Of a stretch of 13,226 bases of DNA, positions 4,628 through 13,226 are shown piece after piece. Every line of letters starts with the position of its first letter. Position 1 is the first letter of the stretch. The notes beneath the pieces are model-generated. The model had not been told where the DNA came from. It saw only the letters and a program-made list of their open reading frames with translations, and ran no database searches. The translations under genes and the position numbers were made by a program. The DNA comes from a virus (lineage: Duplodnaviria > Heunggongvirae > Uroviricota > Caudoviricetes): IMG/VR virus record IMGVR_UViG_2698536480_000007. The stretch is one strand, 5' to 3'.

Positions 4628-4764
4628 AATCTTAACTACAATATGATTCATTTTGATGATTGTTTCATAAGGAACAGTGAAGTAAGATCTAAGAGGAGTT
4701 AAATTTTATACAGTATAATCATAATATTGCAGCAAGGTGGTTATAATTGAAAGAATATTTAGAT

Positions 4765-6222
4765 ATGAATACATCTCATGTAAGAGTTGTTACTCATATG
4801 TGTGGGTTCCTGGTTTGGCTCTATAGTCTTTCAATGTTGCCACCAATGGTTGTAGCATTGTTTTATAAAGAAAAAAGCCTGTTCGTTTTCTTTATAACTT
4901 TCGTTATATTTTTTTGTATTGGTGGCGGAGCGTGGTATACAACTAAGAAATCTGGCATTCAATTACGTACCCGTGATGGGTTTATTATAATTGTAATGTT
5001 TTGGATTTTGTTTTCTGTTATTAGTGCATTCCCTTTATGGATTGACTCAGAACTTAATTTAACGTTCATTGATGCTCTGTTTGAAGGGGTTTCTGGAATA
5101 ACAACAACAGGAGCAACTGTAATTGATGATGTTAGTTCATTACCTCGGGCATATTTGTACTATCGGTCACAGTTAAATTTTATAGGTGGTTTAGGAGTTA
5201 TTGTTCTGGCGGTTGCTGTATTGCCATTATTGGGTATTGGTGGTGCAAAGCTTTATCAGTCAGAAATGCCGGGGCCATTTAAGGATGACAAACTCACTCC
5301 CCGCCTGGCCGATACGTCACGGACACTGTGGATAACTTATTCTTTATTAGGTATTGCTTGTATTGTCTGTTATAGACTTGCAGGAATGCCTTTGTTTGAT
5401 GCTATTTGTCACGGGATTTCCACAGTTTCGCTTGGTGGTTTCTCAACTCATAGCGAGAGTATCGGATATTTTAATAACTATTTGGTTGAGCTGGTGGCTG
5501 GTTCTTTTTCCCTGCTATCGGCTTTCAACTTCACTCTTTGGTATATTGTTATTAGCAGGAAAACGATAAAACCTTTAATCAGAGATATTGAACTTCGTTT
5601 CTTTCTGTTAATAGCCTTAGGGGTGATCATTGTTACCTCTTTCCAGGTCTGGCATATAGGTATGTATGACTTGCATGGAAGTTTTATTCATTCGTTTTTT
5701 CTTGCCAGCTCCATGCTCACTGATAATGGTTTAGCTACGCAGGATTATGCAAGCTGGCCCACGCACACGATAGTGTTTTTGCTGTTGTCAAGTTTCTTTG
5801 GGGGATGTATAGGTTCAACTTGTGGTGGAATTAAGTCACTTCGATTTCTTATACTTTTCAAACAAAGCAAACACGAGATAAATCAGCTTTCTCATCCCAG
5901 AGCGTTGTTGAGTGTAAATGTAGGAGGGAAGATAGTTACAGATCGTGTAATGAGGTCTGTATGGAGTTTCTTTTTTCTTTATACTCTCTTCACGGTGTTT
6001 TTTATACTGGTGTTAAATGGTATGGGATATGATTTTCTTACATCATTTGCAACAGTGGCTGCATGTATTAATAATATGGGATTAGGTTTTGGGGCTACTG
6101 CATCGTCATTCGGAGTGCTTAATGACATTGCAAAATATTTAATGTGCATAGCTATGATTCTTGGTCGCCTTGAAATTTATCCTGTTATTATATTGTTTTC
6201 AGGTTTTTTTTGGCGCTCCTAA
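4765..6222 (+). CDS. trkG: TrkG/TrkH-family potassium uptake transporter
   Basis: 485 aa from ATG 4765 (MNTSHVRVVTHMCGF...), multi-pass membrane protein with repeated GxG selectivity-filter-like segments (GISGITTTGAT, GIGGAK, SLGGFST, GLGFGAT). Matches K-12 Rac TrkG as recalled. A TTG at 4747 with better SD spacing is an alternative start. The gene is visibly AT-rich relative to its flanks. Confidence 0.85.
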   Translation: MNTSHVRVVTHMCGFLVWLYSLSMLPPMVVALFYKEKSLFVFFITFVIFFCIGGGAWYTTKKSGIQLRTRDGFIIIVMFWILFSVISAFPLWIDSELNLTFIDALFEGVSGITTTGATVIDDVSSLPRAYLYYRSQLNFIGGLGVIVLAVAVLPLLGIGGAKLYQSEMPGPFKDDKLTPRLADTSRTLWITYSLLGIACIVCYRLAGMPLFDAICHGISTVSLGGFSTHSESIGYFNNYLVELVAGSFSLLSAFNFTLWYIVISRKTIKPLIRDIELRFFLLIALGVIIVTSFQVWHIGMYDLHGSFIHSFFLASSMLTDNGLATQDYASWPTHTIVFLLLSSFFGGCIGSTCGGIKSLRFLILFKQSKHEINQLSHPRALLSVNVGGKIVTDRVMRSVWSFFFLYTLFTVFFILVLNGMGYDFLTSFATVAACINNMGLGFGATASSFGVLNDIAKYLMCIAMILGRLEIYPVIILFSGFFWRS

Positions 6223-8266: not shown

Positions 8267-9031
8267 ATGAGCAGACCGGACTGGGGGGCGTTGCAGCAGG
8301 AGTATATTGCTGAATACACCCGCTCCGGTATATCTCCGGTGGCATGGTGTGAAGCAAGGGGACTGAATTACGCAACAGCCCGTCGTTACATCAAAAAAAC
8401 TCCGAAAAATGCGCAGACAGAAATGCGCAAAACTGCGCAAAAAAGTGCGCAGAAAAAATCTGCGCAGACTGCACAAAAGCGGAACGAAAAATCTCAGGAA
8501 AAAAAGCCAGTATTCGATGCGGGCCTGAATGAGGGCGACGCGGAGGAATTTTCGTTCTGTCCCGATGAATTCGGCATTTCTGACCAGCAGGCTAAGTTTG
8601 CGATGCTTGTTGCTCAGGGTAAAAAGCCGACAGAGGCGTACCGACTAATGGGGCTTCGTGAAGAGATTCAGTCAGAGGTTGCCGCTGCTTTTGATGAGGA
8701 TTTAGCGGACGCCGTGAGTGATTTTTCTGGTTCTTACGTTACGCACCGGCACTGGGATCCTGTGACGGAAACTGGCGGCGAATCCACCGCAATCTATACC
8801 GGGCGAGGCGTGTTGACACGTTATAAGCTGGGCAGAATTGATGGGATTAATATTTTGCATGGTGACCTTAAATTAACCGCTCTGGTATGCGAGGTTACGG
8901 ATAAACCAGCTGTCGACCATATTATTGAGATTTATGATCCTGTATCAAGGCAGTTACAACGATACGAGGTAATTACAGCAAGTGTAGATCCTTCCGCATC
9001 AGTTTACTCTATCCAGTTAAGGAGAGCGTAA
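8267..9031 (+). CDS. chimeric ORF: terminase-small-subunit-like N-terminal region fused to a head-tail joining (adaptor)-like C-terminal region
   Basis: 254 aa. N-terminal HTH-like segments (SGISPVAWCEARGLNYATARRYIKK and ISDQQAKFAMLVAQGKKPTEAYRLMG) separated by a K/Q/A-rich linker. C-terminal ~95 aa (…HIIEIYDPVSRQLQRYEVITASVDPSASVYSIQLRRA) resembles head-tail adaptor proteins by pattern. Followed directly by tail genes with no terminase large subunit, portal or capsid ORFs. Confidence 0.45.
   Translation: MSRPDWGALQQEYIAEYTRSGISPVAWCEARGLNYATARRYIKKTPKNAQTEMRKTAQKSAQKKSAQTAQKRNEKSQEKKPVFDAGLNEGDAEEFSFCPDEFGISDQQAKFAMLVAQGKKPTEAYRLMGLREEIQSEVAAAFDEDLADAVSDFSGSYVTHRHWDPVTETGGESTAIYTGRGVLTRYKLGRIDGINILHGDLKLTALVCEVTDKPAVDHIIEIYDPVSRQLQRYEVITASVDPSASVYSIQLRRA
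8410..8475 (+). repeat. cluster of palindromic TGCGCA hexamers phased with A-tracts
   Basis: TGCGCA at 8410, 8424, 8434, 8446 and 8461 plus variant TGCACA at 8470, each preceded by A-runs. Encodes the linker ...NAQTEMRKTAQKSAQKKSAQTAQK. Confidence 0.6.
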
Positions 9032-9412
9032 ATGGCAAAGGCATGGGATATAGAACCGTCAATATTTGCCGGGATGATTGAGGAAGATGTAGGGCTGAAG
9101 ATTCGCTACATCGCTATGCAGATTCTTACTGCTATTGATATTGCTGCTCCGGTTGATACCGGACGTTTCAGAAATAACAACCTGGTGTCGTTACAGCATC
9201 CCGATTTTGGTATATCTGATAACGTGGATCCGAACGGTACGATTGCTGTTCAGCGTGGGATCGGGGTTATTTCGAAAGCTGCAAATTACGGGGTTATTTA
9301 TATCCAGAATAACCTTCCTTATGCAGAGGCTCTTGAAAACGGTCATTCACAACAAGCGCCAACTGGCGTGTATGCCAACGCTTTTCATGGTGTTTTACAG
9401 GCTTACAAATGA
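9032..9412 (+). CDS. HK97 gp10-like tail-component (head-tail/neck) protein
   Basis: 126 aa with AAPVDTGRFRNN and NNLPYAEALENG motifs typical of the HK97 gp10 family as recalled. SD AAGGAG; ATG immediately follows the upstream stop. Confidence 0.55.
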   Translation: MAKAWDIEPSIFAGMIEEDVGLKIRYIAMQILTAIDIAAPVDTGRFRNNNLVSLQHPDFGISDNVDPNGTIAVQRGIGVISKAANYGVIYIQNNLPYAEALENGHSQQAPTGVYANAFHGVLQAYK

Positions 9413-9801
9413 AGTTTACTGAAATCAGAAATACGGTTATTTCCAGAATGACGGCACAGACGATTATTGATGGAAAAGACGTATTGTATCCGAACGGGCC
9501 AACGTTCGATCCTTCCGGTAAGTTAATCTGGGCGCGGTTAAGTAATATTCCCGGGCAGGCTGGAGTTAATGAAATTGGCGCGGGGCCGGTTGTTTATCGC
9601 ACGGGGATAATCATTATTCAGTTATTTGTCCCCGCAGGTTCTGGTTCAAAACTCATTACTGAGACAGCCGATAAATTGCGGGAACTGTTTGAGTTTCAGG
9701 ATGACGATCGTCTCAGTTACCAGGCTGTTTCCTCAATAGCCGTCGGCGAAAAGAATGGCTGGTTCCAGCTTAATCTTCAAATTCCATATCGCGCGCTCTA
9801 G
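9409..9801 (+). CDS. tail-terminator / tail-completion-like protein (DUF3168-type position)
   Basis: 130 aa. ATGA overlap with the upstream gene. Sits between the gp10-like gene and the major tail gene, the conserved siphovirus order. Assigned mainly by synteny. Confidence 0.45.
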   Translation: MKFTEIRNTVISRMTAQTIIDGKDVLYPNGPTFDPSGKLIWARLSNIPGQAGVNEIGAGPVVYRTGIIIIQLFVPAGSGSKLITETADKLRELFEFQDDDRLSYQAVSSIAVGEKNGWFQLNLQIPYRAL

Positions 9802-9827
9802 CGCAATTAATGACATAGGAGGCTCCT

Positions 9828-10757
9828 GTGAGTTCAGGTGCAAAGGTTATCTCGGCATTTATCCGGGAGACAGTTGCAGGCACTACGCCAGCAAGTGGTG
9901 ACTGGAGTTTATTAAAACGCACAAGCTGGGGAGTAAAACCCACCCAGAATAAAGGCGAAAATAATGAGATTGGTGGCTCCCGGATGGCTCAGGGGGCGAC
10001 GCCTGGCACTGTGGATGTCGGCGGTGATGTTGGTACCAAATTTCGCTGGGGTCAACATGATGATTTTCTTGCATCCTGTTTCGGCGCGGAATGGTCAGGC
10101 GATTCTCTGACAATGGGGAATGAGCGAATAACATTTTCTCTGGCGACCTATGCGTCCGATGTCGGAATTGCCTCTGTCGTCAGAGGAGCGCAGGTTGGCT
10201 CATGGAAAATGCAGATCCCTAACGACGGCGATATTACAGCGACCGTAACCTTTGCCGGGCTGGGCTGGGAATCAAAGGCCGATGATACGAATTTTATCAA
10301 AGGCGAACCTGTGGATAGTGCAGGAAAGTTACGCTATTCGTTTAAGGAGGTTTCAGCAGTAAGCCTGAATGGTGTTGCCGGAGGTAACGGTTTTTGTATC
10401 GACAGTTTTGATATTCAGTTCGATAACAAACTCCAGACACAGCGTTGTATCGGGACTGGCTCGCCTTATGCAGGAGCAAATATTCCGACTACTTTTACAC
10501 CGTCCGGTACGGTGACGCTTTCATGGTCTAAAGCCGCGTGGGAAATCTGGAGTAAAACACTGACTGGAGAAACAGTTCCGTTCAGCTTCACGCTTTCGAA
10601 TGGAGAGGGGGCATACACTTTCAGTTTCCCGAAGGTTCAGGTGTCAGGTGAATGGCCTGATGGGGGTAATAGCGACATTATCCAGGTTCAATTGAGCATT
10701 ACCGCAGCAGATGAAGCACCTACGATAACCAGAAAAAAAATTCCCCGGCTGCCGTGA
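9828..10757 (+). CDS. major tail (tail tube) protein
   Basis: 309 aa, GTG start 5 nt after AGGAGG. Beta-rich Gly/Thr/Ser-rich composition and position immediately upstream of the chaperone G/GT pair. Confidence 0.6.
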   Translation: MSSGAKVISAFIRETVAGTTPASGDWSLLKRTSWGVKPTQNKGENNEIGGSRMAQGATPGTVDVGGDVGTKFRWGQHDDFLASCFGAEWSGDSLTMGNERITFSLATYASDVGIASVVRGAQVGSWKMQIPNDGDITATVTFAGLGWESKADDTNFIKGEPVDSAGKLRYSFKEVSAVSLNGVAGGNGFCIDSFDIQFDNKLQTQRCIGTGSPYAGANIPTTFTPSGTVTLSWSKAAWEIWSKTLTGETVPFSFTLSNGEGAYTFSFPKVQVSGEWPDGGNSDIIQVQLSITAADEAPTITRKKIPRLP

Positions 10758-10837
10758 TCGCAAAAGCCAGTGCTGAGGCGATTAGTTGATTTTCCGTTAT
10801 TCCTCCTGTGGTACTGCCCTACAGGGGGACGCATTGA

Positions 10838-11299
10838 ATGAGGTTATGGATGTTTATTCTTAATCAGAAAATTATCATTGGTGGAGAACGCTGGTTTACG
10901 CCAATGAAGGACTTAAAACCTGTAGACGGGTTAAAACTGTTGGTGGCAAGCAGCGATAACGATCAGTATCGCTCCCGTAATGCATTAATCCGTCGCCACA
11001 TTGAGAAAATGGATGCCAGTTTGCACGTCGGAACGAAGGAGTTTGATATTTCAAAGGTTTCCGAGGTGGATTCTGTTGATGATTTACTCATTGATAATGC
11101 CGCTCGTTATCTGCTGAAAGACTGGAAAGGGGTTGGTGAACTGGTTAATGGTGTTGAGGTTGCACTGGAATATACGGCAGAACGAGGGATCGCGCTGCTT
11201 AAGCAGAATCCAGAGTTGTACTGGCAGATCCTTGCAGAAGCAGCCAGCATCGCCCAGGGTAAAGAGCAGCAGAAGCAGGATACGATAAAAAAGCCATAG
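10838..11299 (+). CDS. tail assembly chaperone (lambda gpG analogue)
   Basis: 153-aa acidic protein ending ...DTIKKP with the slippery heptamer A-AAA-AAG (11287-11293) two codons before its stop. Start could instead be an internal Met. Confidence 0.6.
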   Translation: MRLWMFILNQKIIIGGERWFTPMKDLKPVDGLKLLVASSDNDQYRSRNALIRRHIEKMDASLHVGTKEFDISKVSEVDSVDDLLIDNAARYLLKDWKGVGELVNGVEVALEYTAERGIALLKQNPELYWQILAEAASIAQGKEQQKQDTIKKP

Positions 11300-11607
11300 C
11301 TGCCCAGCGGTGGTTATCGGAGTTCGGGGGAGAAAGGGGGGAAAAGGCAAGATGGAAGCGAGAAAAACTCAGGTTGCCACCGATACCGGAACCAGAAATA
11401 GACCCGGTGCTTAAGGAGTTGTTGTACGCCTATTCGGTAATATCCCGTGCCCGACGTTATGCTGGAATGGCTGGGGTGCCTTTGCCTTTATCTCTGACAG
11501 AGATAAATGAATATTTAGCCACTCATCCGGTATTGATTGAGCGCGATGAATTTGAAGCAGTGATCTTTGCACTGGATGACCAGTATTTTCAGGAGCAGTG
11601 TGTGTAG
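10838..11607 (+). CDS. tail assembly chaperone GT-like fusion made by programmed -1 ribosomal frameshift
   Basis: The -1 frame is open from 11263 to the stop at 11605-11607. Slipping at A-AAA-AAG (11287-11293) continues ...KK-AIAAQRWLSEFGGERGEKARWKREKLRLPPIPEPE... to 11607. The ORF-track ORF 11374-11607 is the tail of this extension. Confidence 0.5.
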
Positions 11608-11727
11608 TTGTTAATTACGTACACTCTGTTACAGAGATGTGATGGTGTCTTTAATTAAATCGATGATGCTCCTGGAGAAAAGCATTGCGTGGCCTCGTAA
11701 TCGCTATATCTACTATTATGTCGCCTG

Positions 11728-11753
11728 AAACCCACTTCGCGGTGGGTTTTTTG
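11728..11753 (+). terminator. intrinsic terminator-like hairpin between chaperone genes and the next ORF
   Basis: Stem AAACCCAC (11728-11735) / GTGGGTTT (11742-11749), loop TTCGCG, then TTTTGTTG. Confidence 0.45.
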
Positions 11754-11772
11754 TTGTCAGGAGTTTTAATAA

Positions 11773-12642
11773 ATGGCAGAGCAAACCTCGCGTCTCGCAA
11801 TAATTATTGATAGCACTGGAGCGAAAAATAATGCTGACAATCTGACCTCCTCATTAGTCAAAATGACGCAGGCTGGGGAAACTGCTGCAAATAGCGCAGG
11901 GAAAGTGACTAAGGCAACAGAAGATGAGAAGAACGCGCTCGCAAAATTAAAAGCAGCTATTGATCCAGTTGGTGCCGCAATTGATACTGTCGGTCGACGC
12001 TATTCTGAATTAAAGAAATTTTTCGATAAAGGGCTTATTGATAAAGAAGAATATGAATTTCTTGTCCGTAAACTTAATGAAACCACAGAGGAATTGAGCG
12101 GGGTTGCGCAAGCGCAGAGAGAAGCCGAGAAGGCCGGAAAACTTGCTGCCGCCCAGCAGGAAGCGCAGGCTCAGGCCTTTCAAAGAATGCTGGACAAGAT
12201 CGACCCTCTGGCTGCGGCGCTAAGAAATCTTGAACAACAGCATGATGAACTTAATGCTGCGTTTGCATCCGGGAAAATAAATGGTTCTCAGTTTGAGAAT
12301 TATAGCCGAAAAATACAGGAAACACGGCGAGAGCTTACCGGAGAGGCTCAGGCAGAGCGAGAAGCAGCAAAAGCGCATGATGAACAGGTTGTTGCTTTGC
12401 AACGTCTGATTGGTCTGGGCATTGGCACGATGGCGAATACGAACTCTGCTGGCGCGCATACCCACTCACTGTCCGGCACTGCTGCAAGCGCAGGTGCACA
12501 CGCACATACTGTCGGTATTGGTGCTCATACGCACTCCGTTGCGATTGGTTCACATGGACACACCATCACCGTTAACGCTGCTGGTAACGCGGAAAACACC
12601 GTCAAAAACATCGCATTTAACTATATTGTGAGGCTTGCATAA
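11773..12642 (+). CDS. chimeric ORF: tape-measure-like N-terminal coiled-coil region fused in frame to the C-terminal receptor-binding tip of a lambda Stf-type side tail fibre
   Basis: 289 aa. N-terminus [20 protein letters not shown]... and helical Q/A/E-rich repeats fit a tape-measure N-terminus and position. The last ~65 aa ([66 protein letters not shown]) match the lambda Stf / T4 gp37-type HxH tip from memory. Stop TAA 12640-12642 overlaps the tfa ATG. Confidence 0.55.
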
Positions 12643-13226
12643 TGGCATTCAGAATGAGTGAACAACCACGGACCATAAAAATTTATAATCTGCTGGCCGG
12701 AACTAATGAATTTATTGGTGAAGGTGATGCATATATTCCGCCTCATACAGGTCTGCCAGCAAACAGTACCGATATTGCACCGCCAGATATTCCGGCAGGC
12801 TTCGTGGCTGTTTTCAACAGTGATGAGTCATCGTGGCATCTCGTTGAAGATCATCGGGGTAAAACGGTTTATGACGTGGCTTCCGGCGACGCGTTATTTA
12901 TTTCTGAACTCGGTCCGTTACCGGAAAATGTTACCTGGTTATCGCCGGAAGGGGAGTTTCAGAAGTGGAACGGCACAGCCTGGGTGAAGGATACGGAAGC
13001 AGAAAAACTGTTCCGGATCCGGGAGGCGGAAGAAACAAAAAACAACCTGATGCAGGTAGCCAGTGAGCATATTGCGCCGCTTCAGGATGCTGCAGATCTG
13101 GAAATTGCAACGGAGGAAGAAATCTCGTTGCTGGAAGCATGGAAAAAGTATCGGGTATTGCTGAACCGTGTTGATACGTCAACTGCACCTGATATTGAGT
13201 GGCCTACGAACCCTGTCAGGGAGTAA
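12642..13226 (+). CDS. tfa: tail fibre assembly protein Tfa (lambda-type)
   Basis: 194 aa [51 protein letters not shown]..., near-identical to lambda Tfa as recalled. Follows the Stf C-terminal tip. Confidence 0.85.

Follow-up and report, generated by a model that had tools for sequence, protein, structure and literature searches.

The window, which is the whole stretch of DNA analysed here (13,226 nucleotides), is assigned as a decayed Rac-type lambdoid prophage of E. coli from its gene content and order. The genes appear in the order DUF1367/DUF1364/DUF1133, two tRNA genes, a lysis cassette, trkG, ParB/ynaK, and a GREB1-like gene, followed by head-tail genes, the tail terminator, the tail tube, ydaY, the T frame, a fusion ORF, and tfaR. 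Collinearity extends to the Rac prophage of K-12 and to Rac variants from many complete genomes, and the comparison with K-12 that a first-pass annotation of the same DNA had suggested leads to the same locus (trkG ... ydaY ... tfaR). In carriers of the fusion allele, the chromosome past tfa continues with sitABCD, uspF, ompN, and nifJ. The synteny, together with two clean breakpoints relative to loci L003, L005, and L008, identifies the window as a deletion derivative of Rac. The features used below are as follows.

1795-1870 and 1874-1948, + strand: adjacent, prophage-borne genes for tRNA-Thr(TGT) and tRNA-Gly(TCC), between the DUF1133 gene and the lysis cassette.
4747-6222, + strand: trkG, a host-type potassium transporter gene located, as in the Rac prophage of K-12, after the lysis genes and before the ParB-like gene.
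8267-9031, + strand: second in-frame deletion fusion, with its junction at 8646.
10838-11299, + strand: ydaY, a G-like tail assembly chaperone gene, annotated ydaY / Phage_YdaY (PF27119) in collinear loci; the coordinates are those of the longest ORF, and the start is annotated in relatives near 10940.
11287-11293, + strand: slippery heptamer A_AAA_AAG in the X_XXY_YYZ register of the ydaY frame, putative site of a -1 frameshift from G to GT.
11727-11750, + strand: intrinsic-terminator-like hairpin with a 10-pair stem and a T run, from a pattern scan.
11759-11763, + strand: Shine-Dalgarno sequence AGGAG of the fusion ORF.
11773-12642, + strand: fusion ORF with an ATG start, 289 codons, and a TAA stop.
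11773-12411, + strand: tape-measure-derived part of the fusion ORF (codons 1-213), by near-identity to tape measure genes.
12410-12412, + strand: deletion junction with the 3-nt microhomology TTG, by base-level comparison with both parental sequences.
12412-12642, + strand: Stf-derived part of the fusion ORF (codons 214-289 plus stop), by identity to Stf.
12454-12468, 12496-12510, 12523-12537, and 12550-12564, + strand: the HxH motifs AHTHS, AHAHT, AHTHS, and SHGHT of the Stf part.
12642-13226, + strand: tfa, an intact tail fibre assembly chaperone gene of the tfaR type (194 aa; Pfam Caudo_TAP, E=3.8e-44).

In a BLASTP comparison with the tape measure protein of E. coli NCTC9082 (1077 aa), residues 1-213 of the fusion ORF are identical to the N-terminus at 212 of 213 positions. 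Residues 214-289 are identical at all 76 positions to residues 948-1023 of the 1023-aa Stf from the NCTC9082 prophage. At the DNA level, the tape measure genes of many E. coli strains match the tape measure part with 99.9% identity until nucleotides 12412-12415. The first-pass annotation had proposed a helical, tape-measure-like segment of ~220 aa joined to ~65 aa of the Stf tip and had advised that the two segments be aligned separately. The two-part layout and all four of the HxH motifs that it had named are present, and the segment lengths are revised to 213 and 76 residues. When the fusion ORF is searched alone against Pfam, only marginal matches are obtained: Phage_fiber at 20.7 bits, and TMP_3 (17 bits versus a cut-off of 41), SHOCT, and MLKL_N under their cut-offs. 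The assignment rests instead on the near-identity to intact, annotated genes and is independent of chance resemblance.

Pfam domains of the intact tape measure protein are found at residues 267-471 (TMP_2), 671-748 (TMP_4), and 858-932 (Tape_meas_lam_C). The tape measure part of the fusion, which ends at residue 213, lies wholly upstream of these positions and is without all three family domains. The fusion falls well short of the ~1000 aa of a tape measure protein matched to the tail; it shares the N-terminal identity and the position downstream of G/GT. Tandem repeats of ~80 aa are present in the tape measure N-terminus (window 11959-12411; L005 3397-4180). Residues 63-188 align to residues 143-261 with 37% identity (E=6e-20), and the deletion breakpoint is near a repeat boundary.

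A nearly intact Rac-type relative of the window prophage is found in NCTC9082 (locus L005), where the gene order is the tape measure gene (1077 codons), M, L, K, I, J, lom, stf (1023 codons), tfaR (194 codons), and sitDCBA. Window positions 8646-12415 correspond to L005 269-4039 with 99.76% identity, and positions 12410-13226 correspond to L005 16001-16817 with 99.88% identity. Exactly 11,967 bp are missing from the window relative to NCTC9082. The missing segment begins within the tape measure gene, of which the 3' 80% is lost, takes in M, L, K, I, J, and lom, and ends in stf, where the 5' 93% is lost and 231 nt remain. The absence of these genes, which had been deduced in the first-pass annotation from the window by itself, is confirmed by this comparison with an intact relative.

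The tape measure side of the junction reads ...CGTCTGATTG/CTCAAC in L005, and the stf side reads ...GGGGCGGTTG/GTCTGGGC, where the slash marks the breakpoint. The window is identical to the tape measure gene through 12412 and to stf from 12410. The junction is thus located at 12410-12412, at the lower edge of the predicted interval (12410-12440), and the microhomology that was to be looked for there is TTG. The parental TTG sequences are found at codon 213/214 of the tape measure gene and at codon 947/948 of stf, and the deletion spans tape measure nucleotide 640 to stf nucleotide 2842. Both parental breakpoints are in codon phase 0, and the tape measure gene and stf are in one frame in the parent. 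The common frame of the two genes and the equal codon phase result in an open ORF of 289 codons, for which the chance expectation of an in-frame state is 1-in-3. The in-frame fusion of a tape measure gene to stf by deletion is therefore borne out base by base against NCTC9082. No longer homology was found at the breakpoints, where only TTG is common and 6 of 8 bases match around the junction. The 3-nt microhomology points to illegitimate recombination as the probable origin of the deletion.

The second deletion fusion (8267-9031) consists of the N-terminus of a small terminase (126 aa) joined to a complete head-tail gene of 127 aa, which comes after the head genes. The window matches the small terminase gene of VTB97022v until 8646 and L003 from position 13273 onward after that point. 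The junction at 8646 precedes the ATG of the head-tail gene by 2 nt, and the reading frame continues through the former TAA of the preceding gene. The genes for the large terminase, the portal, the minor head protein, a scaffold-like protein, and the coat were removed by this deletion. As a consequence of both deletions together, the element can build neither heads nor tails.

The G/GT arrangement reported in the first-pass annotation upstream of the fusion ORF is recovered as ydaY and the heptamer A_AAA_AAG. The -1 frame past the heptamer is open until 11607, and the -1-frame ORF at 11374-11607 provides a weak match to Phage_TAC_18 (E=3.2e-4) that is below the curated cut-off. A -1 frameshift is predicted to take place at 11287-11293. 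The strong terminator-like hairpin lies inside the tail operon, after the T frame and 22 nt ahead of the start of the fusion ORF, which is that of the tape measure gene. The flank that contains it is 99.9% identical to intact relatives; the hairpin is therefore normal for this phage type and no product of the deletion. No sigma-70-like promoter was found on the + strand between 10700 and 13226. Expression of the fusion ORF would depend on antiterminated late transcription, which is part of the general biology of lambdoid phages. A translated product is possible, given the intact ORF and its good Shine-Dalgarno sequence.

The tfa gene follows the fusion ORF directly, and the TAA stop codon of the fusion overlaps the ATG of tfa (TAATG). 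Tfa has its own GAGG sequence 8 nt upstream of the ATG. Across its full length the encoded protein shares 96-98% identity with the Tfa proteins in lambdoid phage records, and it is as long as tfaR of NCTC9082. A full-length Caudo_TAP protein encoded directly after a fibre-derived ORF is what characterizes Tfa, and the gene is intact and of the lambda type as had been described. A match to Rfam IS009 (RF02111) is detected at window 12985-13183 on the + strand with 220.9 bits (gathering score 117). This match is wholly inside the tfa coding sequence and may simply mirror the conservation of that sequence.

The exact 289-aa protein is present on at least 16 public E. coli contigs, one of which is 4.8 Mb in length. 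Over 9-11 kb, the identity of the six fetched loci to the window is 99.7-99.99%, and both deletions are present in all six. This distribution indicates what is probably one ancestral event in a single, real lineage. The carriers are almost clonal, and the conservation of the sequence among the 16 contigs therefore carries little weight. None of the 5,426 complete E. coli genomes from RefSeq that were compared contains the exact junction. The protein is labelled by NCBI as a "hypothetical protein" (EFO3880105.1 and identical entries), and nothing specific was found in the literature on this fusion or on tape measure::Stf remnants in Rac. In L009 and L014, which carry the same fusion allele, a further upstream deletion (1237-2855) has placed the Cro/DUF1376 replication region directly next to the Rz lysis gene. 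The additional deletion shows that stepwise decay has continued within the lineage.

Homologues of the full architecture in phages, which the first-pass annotation had named as evidence against a deletion fusion, were sought in 50,697 phage records, and none has one place that covers at least 80% of the fusion ORF. The matches in phage records cover either residues 1-213 (tape measure genes) or residues ~204/222-289 (side tail fibre or gp37-type genes). In a search of 5.8 billion proteins, none among the matches listed covers more than 74% of the fusion. The full-length architecture is thus found in no phage record or other listed protein and is therefore not that of a native phage gene.

The C-terminus of intact Stf matches the structure of the T4 gp37 tip (2XGF) with E=1.8e-86, and the 76 aa retained in the fusion align to about residues 952-1026 of gp37. 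The alignment to 2XGF was calibrated with residue numbers from PMC6957217, and roles in the head domain were taken from PMC5221442 and PMC6957217. In gp37, H929 and H931 form the last ascending iron site and residues 933-958 line the tip (PMC6957217), and residues T939, V941, G943, Y949, Y953, and A955 are located on the head domain (PMC5221442). What the Stf part of the fusion retains is the end of the head domain (its last few residues), the descending needle strand, where the four HxH motifs lie, and the 25 residues at the C-terminus. Four of the seven HxH motifs of Stf are kept, and the three ascending ones (SHTHS, AHTHS, and AHSHV in Stf) are upstream of the breakpoint and were deleted. 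The collar (Pfam Collar, Stf 798-845) was deleted, and so were the stretch aligned to gp37 ~932-951 and nearly all of the receptor-binding head. The homology to the HxH repeats is thus present, whereas the complete tip, with collar, both needle strands, seven HxH motifs, and head domain, is not.

The structure predicted with AlphaFold2 from a single sequence and a single chain contains helices over residues 3-229, with pLDDT values of 57-89 for residues 40-210, in agreement with the helical N-terminus that had been proposed. The pLDDT values are <50 for residues 216-289 (the Stf part) in this single-chain model, which is no test of trimer formation. A functional fibre tip is unlikely to be made from the fusion product, since the receptor-binding head is missing and the iron-binding HxH needle is reduced to its descending half. 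According to the first-pass annotation, production of a chimeric protein with a displayed fibre tip was still conceivable. The ORF could in principle be translated, but the display of a tip does not survive the comparison with gp37.

Independent deletions from the tape measure gene or a head gene into stf are found at the same locus in other strains, with differing breakpoints and microhomologies of 0-5 nt. These are listed below.

Tig228: tape measure::Stf, 229 aa; in frame; microhomology TA.
CP61_Sichuan: tape measure::Stf, 332 aa; in frame; microhomology TATTG.
PRO_A-1462 type: tape measure::Stf, 716 aa; in frame; microhomology ATTG.
AH62: tape measure to stf; out of frame; 5-nt overlap of two BLAST matches.
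2018-05-5CC: tape measure to stf; out of frame; no microhomology.
VTB97022v: minor head protein::Stf; in frame; 2-nt overlap (TA).

In the Rac prophage of K-12, two further deletions are found, tape measure-to-lom (ynaA) and ynaK-to-ydaY, both of which are out of frame. The N-termini that are fused in frame to the Stf C-terminus in the databases include the small and large terminase, capsid E, lysozyme, Z, portal, ClpP, ParB, DUF1441, and others, and similar fusions in E. coli end directly in Tfa. Fusions of a phage N-terminus to Stf or Tfa are expected as by-products of deletional decay, given the number of E. coli genomes sequenced. Five of seven independent deletions that end in stf are in frame (binomial p ~0.045 versus 1/3), as are six of the 11 gene-to-gene junctions seen at the locus (p ~0.12); these counts come from too small a sample that was found in part by a search constraining the positions of the breakpoints. 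The excess of in-frame junctions is at most a hint of selection. Unbiased junctions were looked up by Tfa identity, and the Tfa of the window provided 4 useful decayed contexts. The Tfa variants P0171 and P0229 are located in intact P2-like prophages and added no junctions.

The right-hand deletion ends of L001, L002, L008, L017, and L019 are within ~20 bp of GGTATTGGTGCTCATACGCAC, which encodes G-I-G-A-H-T-H. This sequence is found at L003 29360-29385, in the 3' end of stf and ~125 nt before its stop codon, and the five deletions are independent, with different left partners. The cluster comprises Tig228, CP61, and VTB97022v, together with L017 and L019, the last two of which were sampled by Tfa identity only. 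A smaller cluster of right ends is located at the second AHTHS motif (L006, L020, P0054, and P0090), and a further cluster is located at the PDMRGW codons with six different N-terminal partners. The junction in the window is outside all three clusters. The wider question touched by these observations is whether deletion ends in stf are non-random. It is improbable that the ends at GGTATTGGTGCTCATACGCAC, the second AHTHS motif, and PDMRGW, within DNA coding for HxH motifs and the collar, are non-random and also in frame above chance. If they were, either a mechanistic hot spot or selection for a translated Stf C-terminal stub before tfa would be implied, and the fusion in the window would be a member of a recurrent, non-neutral class of the type "X::Stf-stub plus Tfa".

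The fusion ORF is very probably a scar of prophage decay left by one illegitimate recombination of 11,967 bp. The parent would have been a Rac-type lambdoid prophage of the NCTC9082 kind, in which a single recombination between two TTG sequences joined the tape measure gene to stf. Events of this kind, for which long homology is not needed, would typically arise by replication slippage or by microhomology-mediated joining. The fused ORF has kept the ribosome-binding site and start of the tape measure gene, the stop codon of stf, and the overlap with the start of tfa, and the second deletion has taken the terminase, portal, and capsid genes. If late transcription ever reaches the ORF, a long helical segment with a 76-residue tail could be translated. 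The most probable status of this product is that of a neutral, recently formed, pseudogene-like fusion, presumably without function, that is inherited in one E. coli lineage.

It is quite unlikely that the fusion was instead domesticated as a functional chimera, for example as a Tfa-aided trimer with an iron-binding or envelope-associated role in the host, or that its frame is kept for translational coupling into tfa. The open ORF with its ribosome-binding site, the stop codon overlapping the start of tfa, the integrity of tfa, and the five of seven stf-ending deletions that are in frame would be compatible with such a role. One HxH motif in each of three chains could supply six histidines per iron, as deduced from the description of 2XGF (PMC6957217). 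However, the fusion lacks the collar, the three ascending strands of the needle, and almost the whole head, and what remains of Stf is modelled as disordered. The identity among near-clonal carriers is uninformative, and the in-frame excess is non-significant over all junctions at the locus. The terminator-like hairpin just upstream and the lack of a sigma-70-like + strand promoter within 10700-13226 also argue against a functional chimera, and coupling into tfa is unneeded with GAGG at 8 nt before its own ATG.

A dedicated recombination system is a still less probable cause of the deletion, either as a Pin-type DNA invertase acting on a crossover site and a quasi-site or as RecET/Red homologous recombination between repeats. 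The pinR gene adjoins tfaR in many Rac variants, and the right-hand deletion ends are clustered in the HxH-coding part of stf. Invertases are proposed as drivers of tail-fibre gene exchange in a passage of PMC3945230 that cites Sandmeier 1994. The carriers of the allele, in contrast, contain sitABCD downstream of tfa instead of pinR, and the clustered ends in other strains span ~20 bp with no fixed dinucleotide. A degenerate Gin/Hin/Pin-type crossover consensus provided no match with ≤3 mismatches in stf, tfa, or the junction region (L003 and the window), with counts at the level of chance, and a Pin/Gin/Hin crossover was rejected as the cause on this basis. The three identical bases that the parental sequences share at the junction are far under the need of RecET/Red. 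Nothing other than the odd architecture favours an artefact of assembly, such as a chimeric contig, or a native modular gene of a functional phage, and both are given next to no probability. An artefact is excluded by the same junction in at least 16 contigs from independent assemblies, including the one of 4.8 Mb, and a native gene is refuted by the search of the phage records and the other listed proteins.

As a scar of prophage decay, the fusion is a new allele of a well-known object, the deletion scar of a cryptic prophage, and the process is ordinary prophage decay. It adds one more route by which the Rac prophage is eroded in E. coli and provides a base-exact example of a 12-kb deletion that appears to be microhomology-mediated. 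The annotation of EFO3880105.1 and identical entries would be better given as a tape measure/side tail fibre fusion remnant. The stf-tfa remnants of Rac are documented in K-12 as a recombination substrate for infecting lambda (PMC3945230). By analogy, the 3' end of stf and the tfa gene retained here may serve as a recombination substrate for infecting lambdoid phages, with only 231 nt of stf.

One of the closest known systems is YnaA (tmpR) of the K-12 Rac prophage, which is found at the same chromosomal locus and is derived from the same tape measure gene as the fusion. The K-12 sequence is 99.9% identical to window 10948-12412. YnaA is likewise an N-terminal tape measure remnant of an internal prophage deletion, with tfaR kept downstream. 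In K-12 the deletion extends from tape measure nucleotide ~935 into lom, is out of frame, and leaves stfR at full length, whereas the deletion in the window is in frame and lom and 93% of stf are lost as well. Another is the T4 gp37 tip (2XGF) and the C-terminus of lambdoid Stf, where the last 76 residues of the fusion are homologous to the descending needle strand with its HxH iron-binding motifs. The gp37 tip and intact Stf contain seven HxH motifs, a collar, and a head domain, whereas the fusion contains four HxH motifs, has no collar, and is nearly headless. The third comparison is with other in-frame ORFs of defective E. coli prophages that join an N-terminus to Stf or Tfa. Their layout is alike, with the right end in stf or tfa and with the 3' end of stf and tfa kept. 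The breakpoints of the other Stf fusions are different, and the junction of tape measure codon 213 to Stf codon 948 is unique to one lineage. The Stf part of the fusion in the window is the shortest among the Stf-fusion proteins listed from the protein database; at the Rac locus, that of the 229-aa Tig228 fusion is still shorter.
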